Assembly (NCBI GenBank): GCA_963746295.1 | Contig: CAVVAQ010000008.1 | Coordinates: 42,882-106,881 of the forward strand | From: an uncultured Nitrospira sp. | GTDB taxonomy: Bacteria > Nitrospirota > Thermodesulfovibrionia > Thermodesulfovibrionales > UBA6898 | Length of the DNA: 64,000 nt | Direction of reading: 5' to 3' | Shown: piece by piece, positions 1,924 through 20,310 of the stretch | How the letters are laid out: each line of letters begins with the position of its first letter | Position numbering within the stretch: position 1 is the stretch's first letter | Notes under the pieces: generated by a model | What the model was told of the DNA's origin: nothing | The model's database searches: none | Seen by the model: only the letters and a program-made list of their open reading frames with translations | Made by a program: the position numbers and the translations under genes

Positions 1924-4045
1924 ATGTCAAAAGAGAGTGTAATGCAAGATCTGAATCCCCAGCAAAGAGAAGCCCTTGAATATATGGATGGTCCGCTATT
2001 GGTTCTGGCTGGTGCGGGAAGCGGAAAAACAAAAGTCATTACCCATAAGTTCGCGTACCTGGTCAAATCCAAAAAACTTTCTCCCGAGTCGATCTTTACG
2101 GTGACCTTTACCAACAAGGCTGCCAGAGAAATGAGCGACAGGATCCGAACCCTTGTCGGCAAAGACCTGAAATCCTTCTGGATAGGGACCATGCATTCCC
2201 AGTGCAGCAGAATCCTGCGGAAGGAAATAAAGGCGATCGGCTACGGAAATGATTTTTCCATATACGACGAAGACGATCGCTGCAATCTCATACGACATAT
2301 TCTGAAAGAATTCAAGATATATGAGGCACTCTACAAAGGGGTTTCTTCAAGGATCAATTTTTTAAAGGCATCTCTGGTCGGCGCTGAGGATTTTCTTTCT
2401 TCAGGAGACGGATACGGCTTTGACGAGAAGCTTGCCAAAGTTTACGTCAGGTATCAGGACGAACTGAAGAGGAGCAATGCACTTGATTTCGATGACCTGA
2501 TCATGCTGACGGTTCGAAGCTTTTTGAGGAAAAACCGAATCTCCTGAAAAAATATCACGACCAGCTCCCCTATGTGCTGGTTGATGAATTCCAGGATCTG
2601 AATTATGCGCAATACAACCTCATAAAACTGCTCGCGATGCCAGCATAACAACATCTGCGCTGTCGGCGACGATGACCAGAGCATCTATAAGTTCAGGGGC
2701 GCTGATGTAAAACATATCCTGAACTTTGAGAAGGATTTCCCGGGAGCACGGGTGGTCAGACTCGAAAGAAATTATCGTTCCACGCAGAATATCCTTGAGG
2801 TTGCCAATGCAGTTATTGCGCTGAATGATAAAAGGAAGAAAAAGAAACTCTGGACAGAGCGAAAAGACGGGGAAATGGTCCGTTTCTGCTGGCTCGGCAC
2901 AGAGGAGGAAGAGGCGAAGCATATCGCAAAGATCATTAAGGAGTTATATCTGAAGGGGACGTATTCGTATAAGGATATCGGAATATTATACCGGGTAAAT
3001 CTCCAGTCGAGGGCAATTGAAGATGCGTTGAGAGAAGCAGGACTGCCCTATCACGTTGTCGGAGGGATCAGTTTTTACCAGCGGAGAGAGATCAAAGATC
3101 TTATCGCCTATGTCCGTCTGGTCCTCAAACCATGGAGATAATGTGAGCCTCAGGAGGATTATCAATATACCGTCACGGGGGATAGGGGCGGCCACCCTTT
3201 TGAAGATAGAAAATGAGGCAAAGAAAAAGTCGCTCTGTCTTTTTGATGCCATCAAGTTCTGCATAAAGAGCAATAGTATCGTGACTTCAACAAAAGATAA
3301 ATTGAGCAAATTCGTTCATATGACTCGAAAAGCTGTCTTCTGTAAACTATAAGAGCGCGTCCGATATACTGAAGAACGTGGCGGACAAGTCAGGATATAT
3401 GGCAATGCTCGATGAGGAACGGAGACAGAACATTGAAGAACTGATCTCGTCTTCCGAAGGGAAAAATATTCAGGACTTTATTGACAGAAGCCTCATTGCT
3501 GACGAATTCTGACCATGTCTCGGAAGGTAATTTTATTTCACTGATGACGTTGCATAATGCAAAAGGTGTTGAGTTTCCTGTTGTTTTTGTGACAGGCCTT
3601 GAAGAAGGGCTTCTCCCGTATTTCAAGGCGAACGGCAATGAAGACGAGATATTCGAGGAAAGAAGGCTTTTTTATGTAGGCATTACGCGGGCAAAAGATT
3701 TTCTTGTGCTTTCCGGTGCCCGAAAAAGAAGATTGTATGCGAAATTGCAGGAGCAGGAACCTTCAAGATTTTTGCAGGACATACCGAAGACACGCTGTAA
3801 ATGGACCGAGAAAGTCGCCGAGCCCCCGGCTACTCAGATGTCTTCCGAATGCCAGAAAAAAAACGGAACTGAGAAAGGTCCGTCCATATTTTGATTCAGG
3901 GTGCAGGGTGAAGCATCCTGTCTGGGGAGTGGGTGTTGTACGCGATTGTTACGGAGACGGAGAAGACCAGAAGGTGATGGTCAATTTTCCCACGATCGGG
4001 TTGAAAAGACTTTCCCTGAAGCTTGCAAACCTCACCAAATTATAG
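1924..4045 (+). CDS. uvrD: UvrD/PcrA/Rep-type ATP-dependent DNA helicase, split by at least 5-6 frameshifts
   Basis: Fragments 1924..2547 (Walker A AGAGSGKTKV, TFTNKAAREM), 2752..3141 (LERNYRSTQNIL, motif IV region), 3056..3352, 3481..3894 (LMTLHNAKGVEFPVVFV, YVGITRAK) and 3704..4045 (C-terminal KHPVWGVGVV tail) are colinear with one helicase. The missing pieces (DEFQDLN, VGDDDQSIYKFRGA) are readable in other frames around 2550-2750. Confidence 0.85.
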
Positions 4046-6047: not shown

Positions 6048-6564
6048 ATGGAAAGAAAAGGTCTTGTTTCGTTTCAGGGCAAACCATTGACCCTGACAGG
6101 CACAGAGCTTAAGGCAGGCGACAGAGCGCCTGATTTCATGGTACTTGATAGTGAATTAAAAGAGACGGGATTAAAGCATTTCACCGGGAAGATAAAGATT
6201 ATCAGTGTAACCCCGTCCCTCGACACCCCTGTCTGCGACATTCAGGCAAGGAGGTTCAACGCAGAGGCAGCGAACCTGCCTGCTGATGTATCTATCCTTA
6301 ACATAAGCATGGACCTTCCCTTTGCCATCTCGCGGTTCTGTACAAGCGCGGGGATAGATAAGGTAAAGGCCTTATCAGACCACAGGGATGCGTCATTTGG
6401 AAATGCTTACGGAGTTTTGATTAAAGAACTGAGGTTGCTTGCCCGCTCGATTTTTATTATCGATAAGAATGATGTAGATCAGATATATTGAGATCGTCCC
6501 TGAAATTACGAACCAGCCGGACTATGAAAAGGCTCTTATCGAATTACGGCAGATTGTCGGGTAA
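6048..6564 (+). CDS. tpx: Thiol peroxidase (Tpx-type peroxiredoxin), frameshift near 6475-6490
   Basis: The sequence reads GKPLTLTG..APDF..SVTPSLDTPVCDIQARRFN...ARSIFIIDKN. The conserved tail EIVPEITNQPDYEKALIELRQIVG continues in another frame to the stop at 6562-6564. Confidence 0.85.
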
Positions 6565-6636: not shown

Positions 6637-7227
6637 ATGTCTTACACAGCAAAGGATTACAGCAAACTGATAGGCCTCGGCGGTTTCAGCGAGACCTTGC
6701 TGAAGAACCATTTTACCCTGTATCAGGGGTATGTAACGAATACGAACAAGATCAACGAGACCCTCGAACAGATGCTCAAGGACGGCAAGACAGGATCTCC
6801 GGAGTTTGCGGAATTGAAGAGAAGGTTCGGCTGGGAGTTTAACGGTATGAGACTGCATGAATACTATTTCGAAAATCTCGGAGGCAAGGCACCACTTGAT
6901 AAATACGGTCCTCTCGGCAAACAGATGCAGTGCGATTTCGGCAGCTATGAGATATGGGAAAAGGACTTCAGGGCTGTAGGAACGATGAGAGGGATCGGCT
7001 GGGTGGTGCTTTATCAGGACAATCTCAGCGGTAGGATTTTTAATGTCTGGATCAACGAACATGATGTCTCTCACCTCGCAGGATGCAATCCGATATTGAT
7101 CATGGATGTGTTTGAACACGCCTTTATGCTGGATTACGGACTTAAAAGGGCCGATTACATAGATGCATTTTTTAAAAATATTGACTGGAGTGCAGCTGAT
7201 TCCAGAATGGAAGTGATAAAAAAATAG
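6637..7227 (+). CDS. Fe/Mn superoxide dismutase family protein (divergent N-terminal domain)
   Basis: The C-terminal domain GWVVLYQD...PILIMDVFEHAFMLDYGLKRADYIDAFFKNIDW matches the SOD signature D-V-W-E-H-A-Y-Y. The N-terminal NHFTLYQGYV and NGMRLHEYYFENL sit at the metal-ligand positions. RBS AAGGAGG. Confidence 0.75.
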   Translation: MSYTAKDYSKLIGLGGFSETLLKNHFTLYQGYVTNTNKINETLEQMLKDGKTGSPEFAELKRRFGWEFNGMRLHEYYFENLGGKAPLDKYGPLGKQMQCDFGSYEIWEKDFRAVGTMRGIGWVVLYQDNLSGRIFNVWINEHDVSHLAGCNPILIMDVFEHAFMLDYGLKRADYIDAFFKNIDWSAADSRMEVIKK

Positions 7228-7267
7228 CAGGTTGATGTAAGGCTGTTTTTTTTATCTGATAAAAAAA

Positions 7268-7298
7268 GGCGGAAAGTATTGCTGCTTTCCGCCTTTTT
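7268..7298. terminator. Bidirectional intrinsic terminator between sod (+) and the peptide/rSAM unit (-)
   Basis: GGCGGAAAG-tattgctg-CTTTCCGCC is a 9-bp stem. It is flanked by A7 upstream and T5 downstream, so it gives a U-run on both strands. Confidence 0.7.
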
Positions 7299-7322
7299 CA
7301 TGGACTTGTTTATGCTGTTCTC

Positions 7323-7385
7323 TTAACAGGAACTCTTGCATTTGCAGGTAGTAGCAACCTTTTTTGAAACTTTCCTGATTGTCAT
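7323..7385 (-). CDS. Unannotated 20-aa Cys-rich peptide MTIRKVSKKVATTCKCKSSC (candidate RiPP precursor)
   Basis: Read by hand from the reverse complement. AAGGAGGT lies 8 nt before the ATG. The ORF starts 46 nt after the rSAM/SPASM stop codon and its TAA lies about 24 nt before the terminator hairpin. It is below the ORF-track size cut-off. Confidence 0.45.
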   Translation of the reverse strand: MTIRKVSKKVATTCKCKSSC

Positions 7386-7431
7386 TCGTGACACCTCCTT
7401 TTTCAGGGAATGACCGAACTTCTTGTTCAGT

Positions 7432-8601
7432 CTATCTGTTTTTTATTATATCATGCAGAAAACATTTGTAAAGGTCTTTTCCGAGAGGATCGCCGATCAG
7501 TTCAGCCCTGTATCTGCAGCCGCCCCTGCAGGTTTCCAGATATTCACAGTCACAGCGCAGGTCTTTCAGGGATACCGGCCTTGTTCTCTTCCAGCATTCC
7601 CTGAGACCTTCTTTGATCGTGCCGACAGGTCTGTCGGAGTAAAAGGTGCATTTTGTCACGGTACCGTCCGCCATTACCGATAAGCAGATGAAGACCGCAG
7701 CCGAAGCCTGTTCTCCCCGGAGTGAAGACCTGCTCCGTATCCATATCGTAAATACTTTCCTCCCACTTCGGGTAAGACCTGAAACTCACTGCTGTTTTTT
7801 AGTCTTCCCGTAACGCAGGGCACGTCTACGGTCCAGTCCCTGATCCCGAGTTCAGAAAACAGCTTTTCCATTCCACCGAAGTCATCGAGGTTTTTTGCGT
7901 GTACCATCGTTGCCACAGATACCTCGAACCCCTCTCTCTGGCAGTGTCTGACAGCCTTGACGGCCTTGTTGAATGTCCCGTCTCCCCTGAGAGCGTCATG
8001 GCCTTTTCGAGGCCGTCTATGCTTATCTGTATCTCATCGACATGAAGGCCTCTGAGCAAGTCTTTGTTGAGCAGCAGGCCGTTTGTAAAAAGTACTTTTC
8101 TGAAAAAGAAATCGGGAAGAATACTCATTGAGCGCATCGAAACTTGCTGTGCAACAGGGGTTCACCACCGGTGATCATGAGCCTCAAGCCCTGCATCTCC
8201 TCAAACTCAGTCAGGATGTTCCTTATCTGTTCTATGAGAGTTCACCAGTCTCCCTTTGCAGGGCACAGGGGGTTGTTTTTCTTGTCACCGATATAACAGT
8301 GTCTGCACCTGAGGTTGCATCTGTCGGTTATCTGTAGTTCGAGATAGCGGAGTGAAGGCACCGGAGATTTGATGAGGGGAGGCCGTTTTAAAGCAATACT
8401 TTCCTGCGTTAAAATCTTCTCCTCGTGACAGTAATTGATAAACTCCCTGTCACCACCACGACAGCCCTCTTCTGAAGCGCATTTTTTCATAAATTCGAAA
8501 GATACGTCATCAAGCTCATACAGTTCATCCGTTTTTCCATGATAGACTGCGGGGAATTCAAGCCACCTCAGGACAGCATTTTTCGACAGGAAATATCGCA
8601 T
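7432..8601 (-). CDS. Radical SAM / SPASM-domain enzyme with N-terminal RRE(PqqD)-like extension; several frameshifts
   Basis: 8242..8601 carries LELQITDRCNLRCRHCY (CX3CX2C). ITGGEPLL is readable in another frame near 8160. Fragments 7826..8137, 7674..7916 and 7550..7789 are colinear. 7432..7674 carries the SPASM cysteines (GTVTKC..., CDCEYLETCRGGC). Confidence 0.8.
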
Positions 8602-8643
8602 ATATCATTATACAATAATGCTTTTTTTTGATATGATTAAAGA

Positions 8644-9039
8644 ATGAAACCCAAAGCGTTAACGAACTTATGCCGAACCTATTGCCGGTATTATAAACCT
8701 GCACAGGAAGATGACCTCGCATGTATGGGTTTTCTTGTGACTGAAAAGCTGATTGCCCGGGGATTCCCGGTTTCTTCCCCTGATATTTCCGGACCTCAGG
8801 CAAAAACAGATAAAATCATTATGCCCAAAAATAAAACAGCCGGGCATCTCAGAGATCAGATCTGTAAGGTTTGCCCTTTTTCCGAAAACGATTGCGATTA
8901 TATCGATTCTCACCGCAGTGGTTTATCTGTTCCAATTGAGGGAAATCCCGCACCCTGTGGAGGCTTTATATTTTTGGGGCTGCTCATAGACAGGAAAGTT
9001 ATAGATATTAACGATATAAGTCAGGTAATCCAGGCGTAA
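8644..9039 (+). CDS. Cys-rich hypothetical protein (131 aa), divergent from the rSAM gene
   Basis: Motifs are NLCRTYCRYYKP, DDLACMGF, ICKVCPFSENDCDY and PAPCGGF. No signal peptide and no family I can name. A 42-bp AT-rich spacer shared with the rSAM start contains the small palindrome CATTAtacaaTAATG. Confidence 0.5.
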   Translation: MKPKALTNLCRTYCRYYKPAQEDDLACMGFLVTEKLIARGFPVSSPDISGPQAKTDKIIMPKNKTAGHLRDQICKVCPFSENDCDYIDSHRSGLSVPIEGNPAPCGGFIFLGLLIDRKVIDINDISQVIQA

Positions 9040-9071
9040 TTTGCCACACTATTTACCTATACGGAGGAAAG

Positions 9072-9548
9072 ATGGAGAACTATTCTATCAGCGAAGTCAT
9101 CGAACAGGCGGTACAGACAGAGAAACTCGGTTACCAGTTTTATACTGCTATGGCAGACAGGTTTAAAGAGGACGGTGAATTAAAAAAGCTCTTCGAGACC
9201 CTTGGGGCTAAAGAGCTTGTGCATGAAAAGAGGTTCTCGGAGCTAAAGGAAATAACCGGCGCTCCTGAGCCGGAAGGATGGGAAGAGGCGTCGCAATACC
9301 TCAGAGCCATCGTGGAATCAGAGTTTTTTCTTGGCAGGAACAAGGCGCTACCCGCCCTTTCGCATGTCAATACTGTTGAGCATGCCGTCGACTTTGCGAT
9401 GGGATTCGAGAAAGAGACGCTGCTTTATTTCCATACGATTCGTGATGTGGTAAGAGAAAAGGATGTAGTTGATGAGATCATCAACGAAGAAAAGAGCCAT
9501 CTCATGTGGTTGCATAAATTCAAGGGGAATCTTGTAAAGAAGGGTTGA
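9072..9548 (+). CDS. Ferritin-like / rubrerythrin-family di-iron protein (no rubredoxin domain)
   Basis: Two E-x-x-H motifs (ELVHEKRF, EEKSHLMW) in a four-helix-bundle-type sequence. RBS GGAGG. Confidence 0.75.
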   Translation: MENYSISEVIEQAVQTEKLGYQFYTAMADRFKEDGELKKLFETLGAKELVHEKRFSELKEITGAPEPEGWEEASQYLRAIVESEFFLGRNKALPALSHVNTVEHAVDFAMGFEKETLLYFHTIRDVVREKDVVDEIINEEKSHLMWLHKFKGNLVKKG

Positions 9549-9732
9549 ATCGAAAAATGCAGACATTGTTCTTAAATTTATTTAACTCGATGATTCTATT
9601 AGAATATCCTGGAGTGCCCCATAAATTGTGGTATGGCAGGCGATCTGTTCAGAATCTGCTAAGGTATCAAAAAATAAATTTCTTCTCAACATCTGCATTT
9701 TTCTTTATGCTTTTTGGAGAGTTGATAGGTCT

Positions 9733-10248
9733 ATGGATTATACGATCAAGATAGGCGGAGAGGCAGGGCAGGGAATCCAGACAATCGGTGATACCCTTGG
9801 GCTGGTCTTCTCGCGCTCGGGCTATCATGTGTTTACCCATCAGGATTATGAATCCCGTGTAAGAGGCGGCCATAATTTCTTTCAGGTGAGGTTTGCCGAC
9901 CACCCTGTTATGGCGTCAAGAGACACGGTGGATATTGTCATCGCCCTTGATCAGGAGAGCATACTGAATTACGAAAAAGAACTTTCTGACCATGGCCTGA
10001 TAATTTACGATTCCGGGTCATTGAAACAGAAACATGATAAACCCGGCTTCCTTGACGTCCCTTTTGCCCGGCTGGCAGTAGAGCACGGGGGAAGCGGAAT
10101 TATGGCAAATACGGTTGCAGTCGGTTCAGTTATAGGGATGCTCGGCATGGAACTGGATATACTCCTTGCAATACTGAAAGATACCTTCAGAAAGAAAGGT
10201 GAAGAGGTAGTGCAAAAGAATACCGCTGCAGCGATGGCAGGATCATGA
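9733..10248 (+). CDS. 2-oxoacid:ferredoxin oxidoreductase, gamma domain/subunit
   Basis: MDYTIKIGGEAGQGIQTIGDTLG...VFTHQDYESRVRGGHNFFQVRF is the gamma-subunit signature. The upstream part of ORF 9628.. is not homologous. Confidence 0.8.
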   Translation: MDYTIKIGGEAGQGIQTIGDTLGLVFSRSGYHVFTHQDYESRVRGGHNFFQVRFADHPVMASRDTVDIVIALDQESILNYEKELSDHGLIIYDSGSLKQKHDKPGFLDVPFARLAVEHGGSGIMANTVAVGSVIGMLGMELDILLAILKDTFRKKGEEVVQKNTAAAMAGS

Positions 10249-10309
10249 TTATTCGGTAAAGGAATGCACTCAATGCCGGTTTTCTGCTGCTCCGCCGGCG
10301 AAGCCAAAG

Positions 10310-11458
10310 ATGCTCATAGCGGGAAATGATGCGATAGGGCTGGGTGTGGTGGCCTCAGGGTGCAAATTTTATTCTGCCTATCCGATGACCCCTTCAACAG
10401 GGATCATGAATTATGTCGCCGGTAAAGAGTCAAACTACGGGATCATAGTAGAACAGGCAGAAGACGAGATCGCTGCGATTAATATGGCACTGGGCGCTTC
10501 TTTTGGAGGCGTGAGGGCGATGACCGGCACATCCGGAGGGGGTTTTGCCCTGATGGTGGAAGGACTCTCTCTTGCTGCCATGACAGAGACCCCTGTGGTG
10601 ATAGCCCTCGGGCAGAGGCCAGGCCCTGCTACGGGTCTTCCGACACGGACTGAGCAGGGCGAACTGCAGTTCGCCCTTTATACGGCGCACGGTGAATTTC
10701 CGAGGGTGATCTTCGCCCCCGGCACCCCGGAACAGGCTTTTTATCTTACGAACAAGGCCTTTGATCTCGCAGAAAAATACCAGATACCTGTCATTATCCT
10801 TACAGACCAGTATCTTGCAGACTCCCAATGGACCTTTGACGGTTTCGATACAGGCAAGCTTTTATACACTGATTATCGGCTGCGTGGCGAAGCGTTCAAA
10901 AAACTCTCTGACTATAAGAGGCATGCGTTTACTGATAATGGTGTATCCCCCCTTGCTGTTCCAGGCGATGCGAAACATGTTGTGGTCACAGACAGCGATG
11001 AGCACGATGAGGAAGGACATATCATCGAGGATGCCGAAACAAGGGTGAAGATGGTGGAAAAGAGGATATTCAGGAAACTGCCGAATATCATCAAGGAGAT
11101 AGCATCCCCCCTGTTTTATGGAAAGAGTGAACCAGAAACAGTACTGGTCGGTTGGGGCTCCACCTATGGCGTGATGAAAGAGGCTGTTGACTTATTTTCC
11201 CGGGAACAGAAAATCGCCATGCTCCATTTCAGTGAACTCTATCCTTTCCCTTCAACAGATACCTTCGATTACCTGAATGTTCTGAAAAACGCGAAACTTA
11301 CTCTCTGTATTGAAAACAACGCAACAGGACAGTTTGCACGTCTCATGAGGGCAGAGACAGGTTATGAGTTTACGTCCCGGATCAACAGGTATGATGGGAG
11401 ACCCTTCACCCTTGAATCTTTAGCAGGAGAGATACATGTCTACACTGGAAGATTATAA
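10310..11458 (+). CDS. 2-oxoacid:ferredoxin oxidoreductase, alpha subunit (frame open upstream to about 10236; possibly fused to gamma)
   Basis: LIAGNDAIGLGVVASGCKFYSAYPMTPSTGIMNY...EDEIAAINMALGASFGGVRAMTGTSGGGFALM is the typical alpha subunit pattern. Confidence 0.85.
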   Translation: MLIAGNDAIGLGVVASGCKFYSAYPMTPSTGIMNYVAGKESNYGIIVEQAEDEIAAINMALGASFGGVRAMTGTSGGGFALMVEGLSLAAMTETPVVIALGQRPGPATGLPTRTEQGELQFALYTAHGEFPRVIFAPGTPEQAFYLTNKAFDLAEKYQIPVIILTDQYLADSQWTFDGFDTGKLLYTDYRLRGEAFKKLSDYKRHAFTDNGVSPLAVPGDAKHVVVTDSDEHDEEGHIIEDAETRVKMVEKRIFRKLPNIIKEIASPLFYGKSEPETVLVGWGSTYGVMKEAVDLFSREQKIAMLHFSELYPFPSTDTFDYLNVLKNAKLTLCIENNATGQFARLMRAETGYEFTSRINRYDGRPFTLESLAGEIHVYTGRL

Positions 11459-18536: not shown

Positions 18537-20310
18537 ATGAGTTATCTGGTACTAGCAAGGAAATGGAGACCGCAGGGGTTTGATGATCTTATCGGACAGG
18601 AGCCGATAATGCATATCCTCAGAAACGCCATTTCCCAGTCAAAGATCTCCCACGCATACTTATTCTCCGGCCCGAGAGGGGTCGGCAAAACGTCCACAGC
18701 CAGAATACTCGCAAAAGCGCTCAACTGCAAGGAAGGTCCTACCCCATTACCCTGCGGAGTGTGCGCTTCCTGTATTGCGATAACCGATGGCTCTGCAGTG
18801 GATGTCACTGAAATAGACGGGGCTTCAAACAATAGCGTTGATGATATCAGGGACCTGCGGGAACGGGTCAAATACGCGCCTGCCGGCAGGAAAATACAAG
18901 GTATACATTATCGATGAGGTGCATATGCTTTCGACATCGGCCTTCAACGCGCTGCTTAAAAACCCTTGAGGAACCGCCTTCCCATGTTATCTTCGTACTC
19001 GCAACAACAGAGATGAAAAAGATACCGGCAACAGTACTTTCCCGCTGTCAGCACATGCCTTTCAGAAGGATATCCAGCAGCATGATAAAGGCAAGGCTCA
19101 CAACAAATCTCCGAGGCAGGAAGACATCCACATATCTTCCCCTGCGCTGGGGCTCGTTGCTAAAGCTGCTGACGGCAGTGTACGGGATTCCCTGACCATA
19201 CTTGACCAGCTTTCTTCATTCTCTTCCGAGATAACCGAAGAGGATGTCCAGGGTCTTCTGGGTATGGCTGATTTCGGCCTTCTTTCAAAACTGTCACAGG
19301 CATTAATCTCCGGCAACAGGGTCGACATCATCAACCTCATCAGTCTGCTTTCTGAAAACGGGGCTGACTTCAGGTCCTTCACAAAAGAACTGGTGCAGTT
19401 CTTCCGTGACCTGCTTGTGGCAAGTGTGGTCCAGTAAGCCGGAAGACGCGCTTGACCTGAATATTGAAGAGCTGTCCGTAGTAAAAGATATTGTCACAAC
19501 ATCCTCCGAAGACCAGCTCACGCTGATGCTCTCCGAAATCATGAAGGCTGAGACCGATGTCAGAAACGCGTCCTCTCCAAGACTCGCGCTCGAAATGGCA
19601 CTGATACGGGCCAGTTTCCTCAGCACCATGAAGCCGCTCAAAGAGGTGATCGATAATATCGACCTTTACAGCAGGCAGATTCTCCGGACCAGCAACCAGA
19701 CAGCCCCCGGCAGGCACGACTCTCCGGAAAAATGTTCCACCTGTTGAGGAAGAAAAGCCGGATATGAAGCCGGAAAGCAGGTCTGAAGCCGGAGATGCCG
19801 ATATCCTCTGAAGAGTCTGTTGAGGAAAAATACCTGAAGGACAATCCGGAAGATACCCCTGAAGAAAGATACCATTGAGGATCAGAAGATGATGATGCTC
19901 CTGATGGAAATTCCATCTGCTCCGCTCCTGGACACAAGCGGGGATTTATCCTCTGCCTGGGCCAAAGACCCTCGATAAAATAGACGCCCCTCTCGCTTCA
20001 AAAATCTCTCAGGCCAGCGTTGAATTTAATGGAAATGGAACTTTTGCTTACCCTTGATGGCGGACATGCTGTCTTCGAAGACGCAATAAAGAAAAACCTG
20101 AAGTCCCTGGAAAATATTGTGTCCGGCGAGTACGGGAATAAAGTCAGGGTAAAGCTGGTTACCTCACAGAAAAAGCCTCCCCGCAAAAAAGACCTGAAAG
20201 AAAAGGCCATGAGCGAGCCTGTTGTCAGGGAGGCACTGGAGCTTTTTGAAGGAAGGGTCGTAGATGTAACACCAATCGAAAATATGAAAAATGGAGGAGA
20301 CCATGTCTAA
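18537..20310 (+). CDS. dnaX: DNA polymerase III subunit gamma/tau, split by multiple frameshifts
   Basis: 18537.. gives [22 protein letters not shown]...[23 protein letters not shown] and the Zn module [22 protein letters not shown](T)[20 protein letters not shown] and [12 protein letters not shown] are readable in shifting frames. The tail ORF 20020..20310 ends the gene. Confidence 0.85.

Follow-up and report, generated by a model that had tools for sequence, protein, structure and literature searches.

Pairs of a short peptide and a radical S-adenosylmethionine (SAM) enzyme of the SPASM type have yielded both antibiotics, such as the sactipeptides and ranthipeptides, and cofactors, such as pyrroloquinoline quinone (PQQ) and mycofactocin. 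The SPASM domain is defined by the cysteine pattern C-x9-15-G-x4-C ... C-x2-C-x5-C-x3-C ... C and carries two auxiliary [4Fe-4S] clusters. The subject of the present work is a locus of related appearance in an uncultured Nitrospira sp. (assembly GCA_963746295.1, contig CAVVAQ010000008.1, positions 42,882 to 106,881 of the forward strand; this whole stretch of 64,000 nucleotides is referred to below as the window), where a first reading of the sequence, hereafter the original prediction, had pointed to a 20-codon gene behind a radical SAM/SPASM gene and had proposed the two as precursor and maturase. The explanation favoured here, with moderate confidence, is that the window holds one copy of a conserved three-gene peptide-modification cassette of anaerobic Bacteria and Archaea, which would consist of a 20-residue precursor-like peptide, a radical SAM enzyme with a seven-Cys SPASM region and a domain like the recognition element (RRE) of ribosomally made peptides with post-translational modifications (RiPPs), and a helical Cys-rich partner protein.

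In its operation the cassette resembles the ranthipeptide (SCIFF) and sactipeptide systems CteA/CteB, Tte1186a/Tte1186, PapA/PapB and SkfA/SkfB, in which a radical SAM/SPASM enzyme with an N-terminal peptide-recognition domain stands beside a short Cys-rich peptide, much as the cassette enzyme does with its RRE-like domain and SPASM-type cysteines, and it shares with SCIFF a peptide unusually conserved across taxa. However, the cassette peptide has 20 residues, against about 45 or more in the ranthipeptide and sactipeptide systems, its C-K-C-x-x-S-C core is unrelated to theirs, and the enzyme falls below the cut-offs of their maturases (PapB, 64 against 340; StsB, 64-77 against 625; SkfB, 62 against 300). 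Unlike those systems, moreover, the cassette includes a Cys-rich partner, occurs in Archaea too and has no conserved protease or exporter.

In its layout the cassette resembles the pathways of mycofactocin (MftA/MftB/MftC) and PQQ (PqqA/PqqD/PqqE), with their three parts, their peptide of 20-30 residues modified near the C-terminus, and a small accessory protein which is at times fused to the radical SAM/SPASM enzyme. As in both of these cofactor pathways, broad distribution and conserved sequence suggest that the function is one of housekeeping and not that of an antibiotic. The accessory protein of the known pathways is, however, a PqqD-type RRE, whereas in the cassette the RRE-like domain lies inside the enzyme and the accessory protein is Cys-rich and, by prediction, all-helical. 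Furthermore, the enzyme reaches 67-80 bits with the MftC model TIGR03962 (cut-off 265), and no equivalents of MftD/E or PqqB/C/F are conserved at the cassette loci.

The association of a radical SAM/SPASM enzyme with a small Cys-rich protein is also found in QhpD/QhpC, but QhpC belongs to an amine dehydrogenase as one of its subunits, and genes for an enzyme of that kind are absent from the cassette; the cassette partner is, in addition, sometimes fused to the enzyme, and a separate peptide of 20 residues is conserved as well. Finally, the anaerobic sulfatase-maturating enzymes (anSME), which the original prediction had named as an alternative identity, have the same radical SAM/SPASM fold, with structural similarity over about 300 columns, but lack the N-terminal domain. 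No sulfatase, with its C/S-x-P-x-R motif, turned up among the neighbouring genes examined, and the enzyme scores 66 bits with TIGR03942, against a cut-off of 349.

The searchable literature contains no mention of the motif strings of this family, and topical searches too found nothing on it. We regard the cassette as an undescribed radical SAM/SPASM-peptide system, characterized by its short conserved peptide, its distribution across both domains and its novel accessory protein. The peptide is among the shortest candidate precursors, with a core almost invariant from Nitrospirota to Archaeoglobus and the Asgard archaea; it offers a well-defined target for the search for new radical chemistry on Cys, Lys or Ser, and its study may show that anaerobes have a small thiol- or metal-handling molecule of a new kind.

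The peptide gene and its coupling to the enzyme

Gene callers miss the peptide gene (Table 1), which is an open reading frame (ORF) of only 20 codons. The N-terminal stretch of the encoded peptide, M-x-I-[KR]-K-[VI]-x-[KR]-K, is basic, and the C-terminal core is C-K-C-x-x-S-C. The ORF, its near-consensus Shine-Dalgarno site and the distance of 46 nt (7431-7386) between the stop codon of the enzyme (7434-7432) and the peptide start are all in the sequence as originally described, the spacer of 8 nt being that counted from the GGAGG core. The peptide has no match to any NCBIfam or Pfam family and the enzyme none to a specific one, in agreement with the view that the peptide stands outside the named precursor families.

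The closest comparison was provided by a syntenic JGI metagenome contig (L001) with the gene order 2-oxoacid:ferredoxin oxidoreductase (POR), rubrerythrin, a 130-residue protein, radical SAM enzyme, superoxide dismutase (SOD) and Tpx, which carries MTIRKVTKKVSTTCKCKSSC at the equivalent place. Of the changes between the two peptide genes, 7 are synonymous and 2 conservative, and directly past the stop codon the similarity is lost. The ratio of non-synonymous to synonymous substitution rates (dN/dS) is 0.04, as obtained from a codon comparison at DNA level, which replaced tblastn segments that had mixed out-of-frame stretches of the broken enzyme gene. When 151 copies of the peptide gene are aligned, the entropies are 0.70, 0.68 and 1.40 bits for the first, second and third positions of the codon, the third being about twice as variable as the other two, while the flanks reach 1.7-1.9 bits except for a block of low entropy 8-15 nt upstream of the start; this block is the conserved Shine-Dalgarno site, and a GGAGG-type site precedes each member of the family alignment. 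An A6 run inside the ORF, in which an indel had been feared, leaves the frame undisturbed, since the orthologues have the same length of 20 codons. To judge from these sequence signatures, the peptide gene is a real coding gene of the translated type under purifying selection, and it illustrates how comparative analysis can recover 20-codon genes that gene callers overlook.

In L001 the ORF of the enzyme extends further than in the window, and its TGA stop overlaps the ATG of the peptide (ATGA, L001 5230-5233) where the window has the 46-nt gap; this overlap suggests translational coupling in that contig.

The relation between peptide and enzyme was followed in both directions. Starting from the enzyme, 52 GTDB loci with orthologues at 29-64% identity were collected, covering Nitrospirota, relatives of Ca. 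Magnetobacterium, Desulfobacterota, Dehalococcoidia, Thermoleophilia, Actinomycetota, Rokubacteria, Methanoperedens, Archaeoglobus, Geoglobus and Asgard archaea, together with a control sample of 29 loci of distant radical SAM/SPASM enzymes (about 30% identity or less). The original prediction had suggested that a conserved small ORF with a basic leader and a CxCxxxC core should accompany orthologous maturases, and this is what was found in 38 of the 52 loci: an ORF of 20-21 codons on the strand of the enzyme, preceded by a GGAGG site, with the consensus M-x-I-[KR]-K-[VLI]-x-[KR]-K-x4-C-K-C-x-x-S-C. In most Bacteria it lies 14-240 nt downstream of the enzyme, and in Archaea (Archaeoglobus, Geoglobus, Methanoperedens) and some Desulfobacterota 150-480 nt upstream of it. 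None of the 29 control loci has the peptide.

Starting from the peptide, a degenerate DNA pattern based on the peptide only was run over metagenome contigs and returned at least 120 stretches. In 92 of 120 such loci the fetched DNA contains an orthologue of the enzyme, which in 91 cases shares the strand of the peptide, the median gap being 56 nt; as for the other 28 loci, in 21 the DNA on one side is shorter than 1.3 kb, because the contig or the fetched stretch ends there. The peptide is genomically coupled to one radical SAM/SPASM family and to no other radical SAM family sampled.

The family also includes a variant of 42 residues, found in an Asgard (Promethearchaeota) locus (L050, 1075-1212, minus strand), with three tandem CKCGDSC units spaced by ISN[GT]; such an array of cores is expected of a repeated modification unit. 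The enzyme of this locus has a longer N-terminal domain, resembling a more complete RRE. Two identical or nearly identical copies of the peptide gene, separated by between a few hundred and 1,900 nt, are present in some other loci (L030, at 1758-1820 and 3201-3263, as well as L174 and L199).

The enzyme and its Cys-rich partner

After repair of the reading frame, the enzyme gene yields a translation of 394 residues, for which full-length matches at 58-81% identity were obtained with hundreds of intact homologues about 379 residues long, some of them 77-81% identical; the few homologues that carry a source name come from metagenome-assembled genomes of Nitrospirota. The repaired protein scores 77 bits with the Pfam model Radical_SAM (PF04055; gathering score 29.5), which places it in the superfamily, and the precomputed Pfam lists of the homologues contain PF04055 only. 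The cysteines of the CX3CX2C cluster motif and of the C-terminal region, both noted in the original prediction, are present and, in an alignment of 53 homologues, invariant. The second group comprises C292, C308, C340, C342, C348, C352 and C370, in the order C-x10-G-x4-C ... C-x-C-x5-C-x3-C ... C, of which the part C-x-C-x5-C-x3-C is a variant of the usual SPASM spacing. The proposed check of the repaired protein against models of peptide maturases led to no specific family: for the window protein, an intact homologue (P0002) and an Archaeoglobus orthologue, no NCBIfam model comes near its cut-off, those of NirJ and AhbD included, and the best score of the enzyme is 109 bits with WgkB (cut-off 650).

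In this family the CX3CX2C motif is followed directly by a loop (columns 118-156 of the alignment) which is often rich in Pro and Gly and whose hypervariable length ranges from 0 to about 45 residues. The loop is present in its long form in the window (8236-8278, minus strand) and in its short form in a relative that is 95% identical (L082).

The N-terminal extension of the enzyme is present as predicted, with a length of about 85 rather than about 95 residues. In an AlphaFold2 model of P0002 it consists of four short strands and two helices, with a pLDDT of about 90 over residues 1-65. In Foldseek searches the RiPP maturases SkfB, SuiB and CteB are among the leading matches, with alignments of 379-404 columns which take in their N-terminal RRE, whereas MoaA, viperin, anSME and PqqE are aligned over about 275-300 columns, which correspond to the core alone. 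The domain is accordingly described here as RRE-like by predicted fold, not by sequence, and membership of the RRE family is not claimed.

The third component is encoded by the divergent Cys-rich ORF, which is present with the length and spacer first reported and belongs to no curated family. It contains 7 conserved Cys in two related half-domains (CxxxC...C-x-G-F and CxxCPF..DCD...PCGGF), an internal duplication backed by hhalign with a probability of 87%, and single-domain forms of 57-80 residues exist in Archaea and Actinomycetota. The family is small, with 207 representative clusters among 1.84 billion. Its AlphaFold2 model is all-helical (pLDDT 77), a Foldseek search of this model against the PDB gave no fold match, no NCBIfam model matches, and its Pfam matches are far below threshold.

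The partner lies directly beside the enzyme in 29 of the 52 orthologue loci, compared with none of the 29 controls. Moreover, natural fusions (P0248, P0261) have the order Cys-domain, RRE-like domain, radical SAM/SPASM, and in metagenome loci such as L116, L121-L123, L135 and L162 one ORF spans the matches to both partner and enzyme. The partner is thus a co-conserved third component, at times fused to the enzyme. In a further protein (P0205) the Cys-rich domain is fused to a cupin-like protein, which in two lineages occurs as a separate neighbour of the cassette with about 110-120 residues (L030, 2683-3006; L040, 6044-6409).

Table 1. Positions of the cassette genes and associated features in the window
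Feature	Position	Strand	Basis or remarks
Peptide gene	ATG 7385-7383 to TAA 7325-7323	-	20 codons + stop; encodes MTIRKVSKKVATTCKCKSSC
Shine-Dalgarno site of peptide gene, AAGGAGGT	7400-7393	-	7 nt to ATG; 8 nt from GGAGG core
Radical SAM/SPASM enzyme gene	8601->7432	-	Three-frame translation, ~7 frame changes
N-terminal domain, ~85 aa, RRE-like	8347..8601	-	AlphaFold2 model and Foldseek
CX3CX2C cluster motif CNLRCRHC	8296..8319	-	C95, C99, C102 invariant in 53 homologues
SPASM cysteine block CDCEYLETCRGGC	7516..7554	-	With upstream C-x10-G-x4-C and downstream Cys, 7 conserved Cys
Cys-rich partner gene, 131 aa	8644-9039	+	Divergent from enzyme gene
Divergent spacer between enzyme and partner genes	8602..8643	.	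42 bp; weak plus-strand promoter-like sites
Intrinsic terminator hairpin, bidirectional, common to convergent SOD gene	~7262-7299	both	Direct folding; core GGCGGAAAG/CTTTCCGCC
Promoter-like site TTTACA-16 nt-(TG)TATAAT	7445..7472	-	Consensus scan, 11/12 matches; near-consensus sigma-70

Proposed function and competing explanations

The RRE-bearing SPASM maturases CteB, SuiB and SkfB provide a template for the mechanism. By analogy, the N-terminal domain of the enzyme would bind the basic, beta-prone leader M-x-I-K-K-V-x-K-K; cleavage of SAM would give a 5'-deoxyadenosyl radical, which would abstract a hydrogen atom within the C-K-C-x-x-S-C unit, and an auxiliary Fe-S cluster would position a Cys thiolate for cross-linking. 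The peptide would thereby be cross-linked within itself, the most plausible bond being a Cys thioether like those of sactipeptides or ranthipeptides. The near-invariant K15 and S19, together with the repeated Asgard unit, suggest the seven-residue unit as the modified element. The partner may act as a metal- or Fe-S-binding accessory subunit, and the product would probably have a role linked to metal or redox homeostasis; it probably stays in the cell, since no conserved protease or exporter was found. The pairing of maturase and precursor claimed in the original prediction gains support from purifying selection and from the adjacency seen in both search directions, while modification of the peptide itself is something that we infer.

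Several points weigh against this explanation. The peptide is missing within 4 kb of the enzyme in 14 of the 52 enzyme loci, and at least 7 peptide genes are orphans, with flanks of at least 1.3 kb free of radical SAM genes on both sides. The Pfam SPASM model gives 14.2 bits (gathering score 21.5), and the SPASM region is of low confidence in the model of P0002. The original proposal of an N-terminal PqqD/RRE domain is sustained by predicted fold and by the full-length Foldseek alignments, but not by sequence searches: no match to PF05402 (PqqD) was obtained at E<=1, nor did a profile of the domain match any PDB sequence. Moreover, RRE/PqqD-like domains are winged helix-turn-helix structures with a three-stranded sheet and three helices, and the modelled domain has two helices only. 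The partial NCBIfam scores of the enzyme with NirJ and AhbD, whose substrates are not peptides, are as high as those with peptide maturases. Finally, that the peptide is modified at all, and by which chemistry, is deduced by analogy, the type of bond not being derivable from sequence.

Some of these points are better accommodated if the peptide stays unmodified, as a micro-protein that binds metal or has a regulatory role and is merely syntenic with the enzyme, the latter then acting on the partner, or on a tetrapyrrole or other small molecule; QhpD acts on QhpC, and NirJ and AhbD act on small molecules of this kind. The orphan peptide genes, which have their own Shine-Dalgarno site and terminator, the enzyme loci lacking the peptide and the similar scores with NirJ/AhbD and peptide maturases would all fit, as would the position of the partner, which adjoins the enzyme in 19 of 23 orthologue loci outside Nitrospirota (L028-L052). 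So would a peptide subgroup with the sequence M-[SVL]-I-K-K...C-K-C-H-[QK]-S-C, found on five contigs (L107, L115, L127, L134, L137) with no radical SAM gene. The peptide gene adjoins the C-terminus of CopA in L115, L127 and L134, and in L107 and L137 a gene for a Met-rich secreted protein comes next, its ribosome-binding site and start codon following within a few bases of the peptide stop; other neighbours in the subgroup encode a rhodanese and a flavoprotein like thioredoxin reductase, with a Cys-rich N-terminal extension which we take to resemble YHS/TRASH. This context is a lead to the handling of copper or another metal, or to redox handling, and not a demonstration of it.

The micro-protein explanation has to contend, however, with an adjacency of peptide and enzyme that outlasts changes of gene order across phyla and domains. 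The RRE-like domain and the best fold matches of the enzyme, which are peptide maturases, also speak for a peptide substrate; fusion of the partner at the N-terminus of the enzyme is more readily understood for a subunit than for a substrate; repetition of the core, as in the Asgard peptide, is typical of modified cores, and most of the loci without the enzyme (21 of 28) are cut short on one side. We consider it improbable on this evidence, and keep the modification cassette as the preferred reading.

A bolder version of the cassette reading is that it makes a peptide-derived metal-binding or redox-active cofactor, that is, a third pathway of the PQQ/mycofactocin type, common to anaerobic Bacteria and Archaea, serving copper, iron or oxidative-stress homeostasis and built from the seven-residue C-K-C-x-x-S-C unit with the help of the new Cys-rich accessory protein. 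This would be in line with the conservation of the core across domains, the lack of a conserved exporter or protease, the setting of SOD, Tpx, rubrerythrin and ferritin-like genes, and the subgroup beside CopA and Met-rich proteins. This bolder version is for now judged unlikely.

The cassette might also be dead in this genome, with the maturase a true pseudogene and the peptide and partner its leftovers. Mapping of indels against L001 and L082, the latter being an ENA contig about 95% identical, placed two frame breaks in the variable loop and others at ~8139, ~8122, ~8000, ~7715 and ~7683, that is, about 7 in 1.17 kb. Their lengths are not multiples of three and they are not limited to homopolymers, and their density per kb, about ten times that of the flanking genes, further weighs against a functional cassette here. 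Against L001, one break each was found in Tpx (6048-6564, plus strand; ~6476) and in the fused POR gene for the gamma and alpha subunits (9628-11458, plus strand; ~10242), and none in SOD, rubrerythrin, POR-beta or the partner. Likewise, dN/dS of the enzyme against L082 is 0.37, a value resting on few changes and compatible with recent real inactivation. However, the frame-repaired enzyme has a dN/dS of 0.14 against L001, not far from the 0.04-0.10 of neighbouring genes, the first 282 codons of the L082 enzyme are intact, and so are the peptide, its Shine-Dalgarno site, the terminator and the partner in the window. Moreover, the genes for a UvrD/PcrA helicase (2752-4045, plus strand) and for DnaX, the gamma/tau subunits of DNA polymerase III (18537-19747, plus strand), are each split over several frames, with pieces matching consecutive parts of one Pfam profile each. 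Since dnaX is an essential gene and is broken too, patches of multiple frameshifts appear to be a property of the assembly, and patchy assembly error is the likelier cause. The frameshifts of the enzyme are thus likely to be sequencing or assembly artefacts, which makes a dead cassette doubtful; an assembly so ridden with frameshifts should not be taken for gene decay.

Lastly, the very short length of the ORF, its absence from gene calls and its location behind a stop codon and ahead of a terminator, a setting in which structured RNAs often occur, might suggest that it arose by chance or belongs to a non-coding RNA or an element of the 3' untranslated region. The comparative data already refute this: conservation over 150 loci together with the codon-position signature rules out chance, the amino-acid sequence is kept in Bacteria and Archaea with synonymous variation, the Shine-Dalgarno site is always there with flanks that are not conserved, and an Rfam scan of 6900-9200 found no family near any threshold.

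Transcription signals and genomic neighbourhood

The bidirectional terminator reported about 24 nt past the peptide stop was not listed by a simple terminator scan but was confirmed by direct folding. On the minus strand the hairpin has a free energy of -22 kcal/mol (z = -5.95) and a U7 tail comes after it; on the plus strand, where the hairpin lies behind the SOD gene, folding is good as well. The peptide gene had been taken, from this arrangement, for the last cistron of the enzyme's transcription unit. Its position agrees with this, but a promoter-like site located within the last codons of the enzyme gene, with the ATG of the peptide about 55 nt downstream of it, makes the assignment uncertain. 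This predicted promoter could be the peptide's own, in which case the peptide could be transcribed separately and at a higher level than the enzyme; the same bases also encode the conserved LYKCFLHDII of the enzyme.

Elsewhere in the window, neither enzyme nor peptide nor partner has a second copy. In the loci examined, no neighbour beyond the three cassette genes is conserved across phyla, and no protease, transporter or exporter is conserved among them. Some lineages add a FAD (flavin adenine dinucleotide) amine-oxidase-like enzyme, a methyltransferase, a cupin-like protein or a second radical SAM/SPASM enzyme, a variable pattern typical of the tailoring genes of RiPP clusters. In Nitrospirota the cassette is set among genes for SOD, Tpx, rubrerythrin or ferritin-like proteins, nitroreductase and small ferredoxins. 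An apparent second conserved small ORF (...QLPDSCRYC...) downstream of the cassette in L006, L007 and L035 was rejected as a candidate, being the antisense of a small ferredoxin gene. A small ferredoxin-like gene of this kind, encoding about 60 residues with two CxxCxxC-type motifs, converges on the cassette in L003, L006, L007 and L035.

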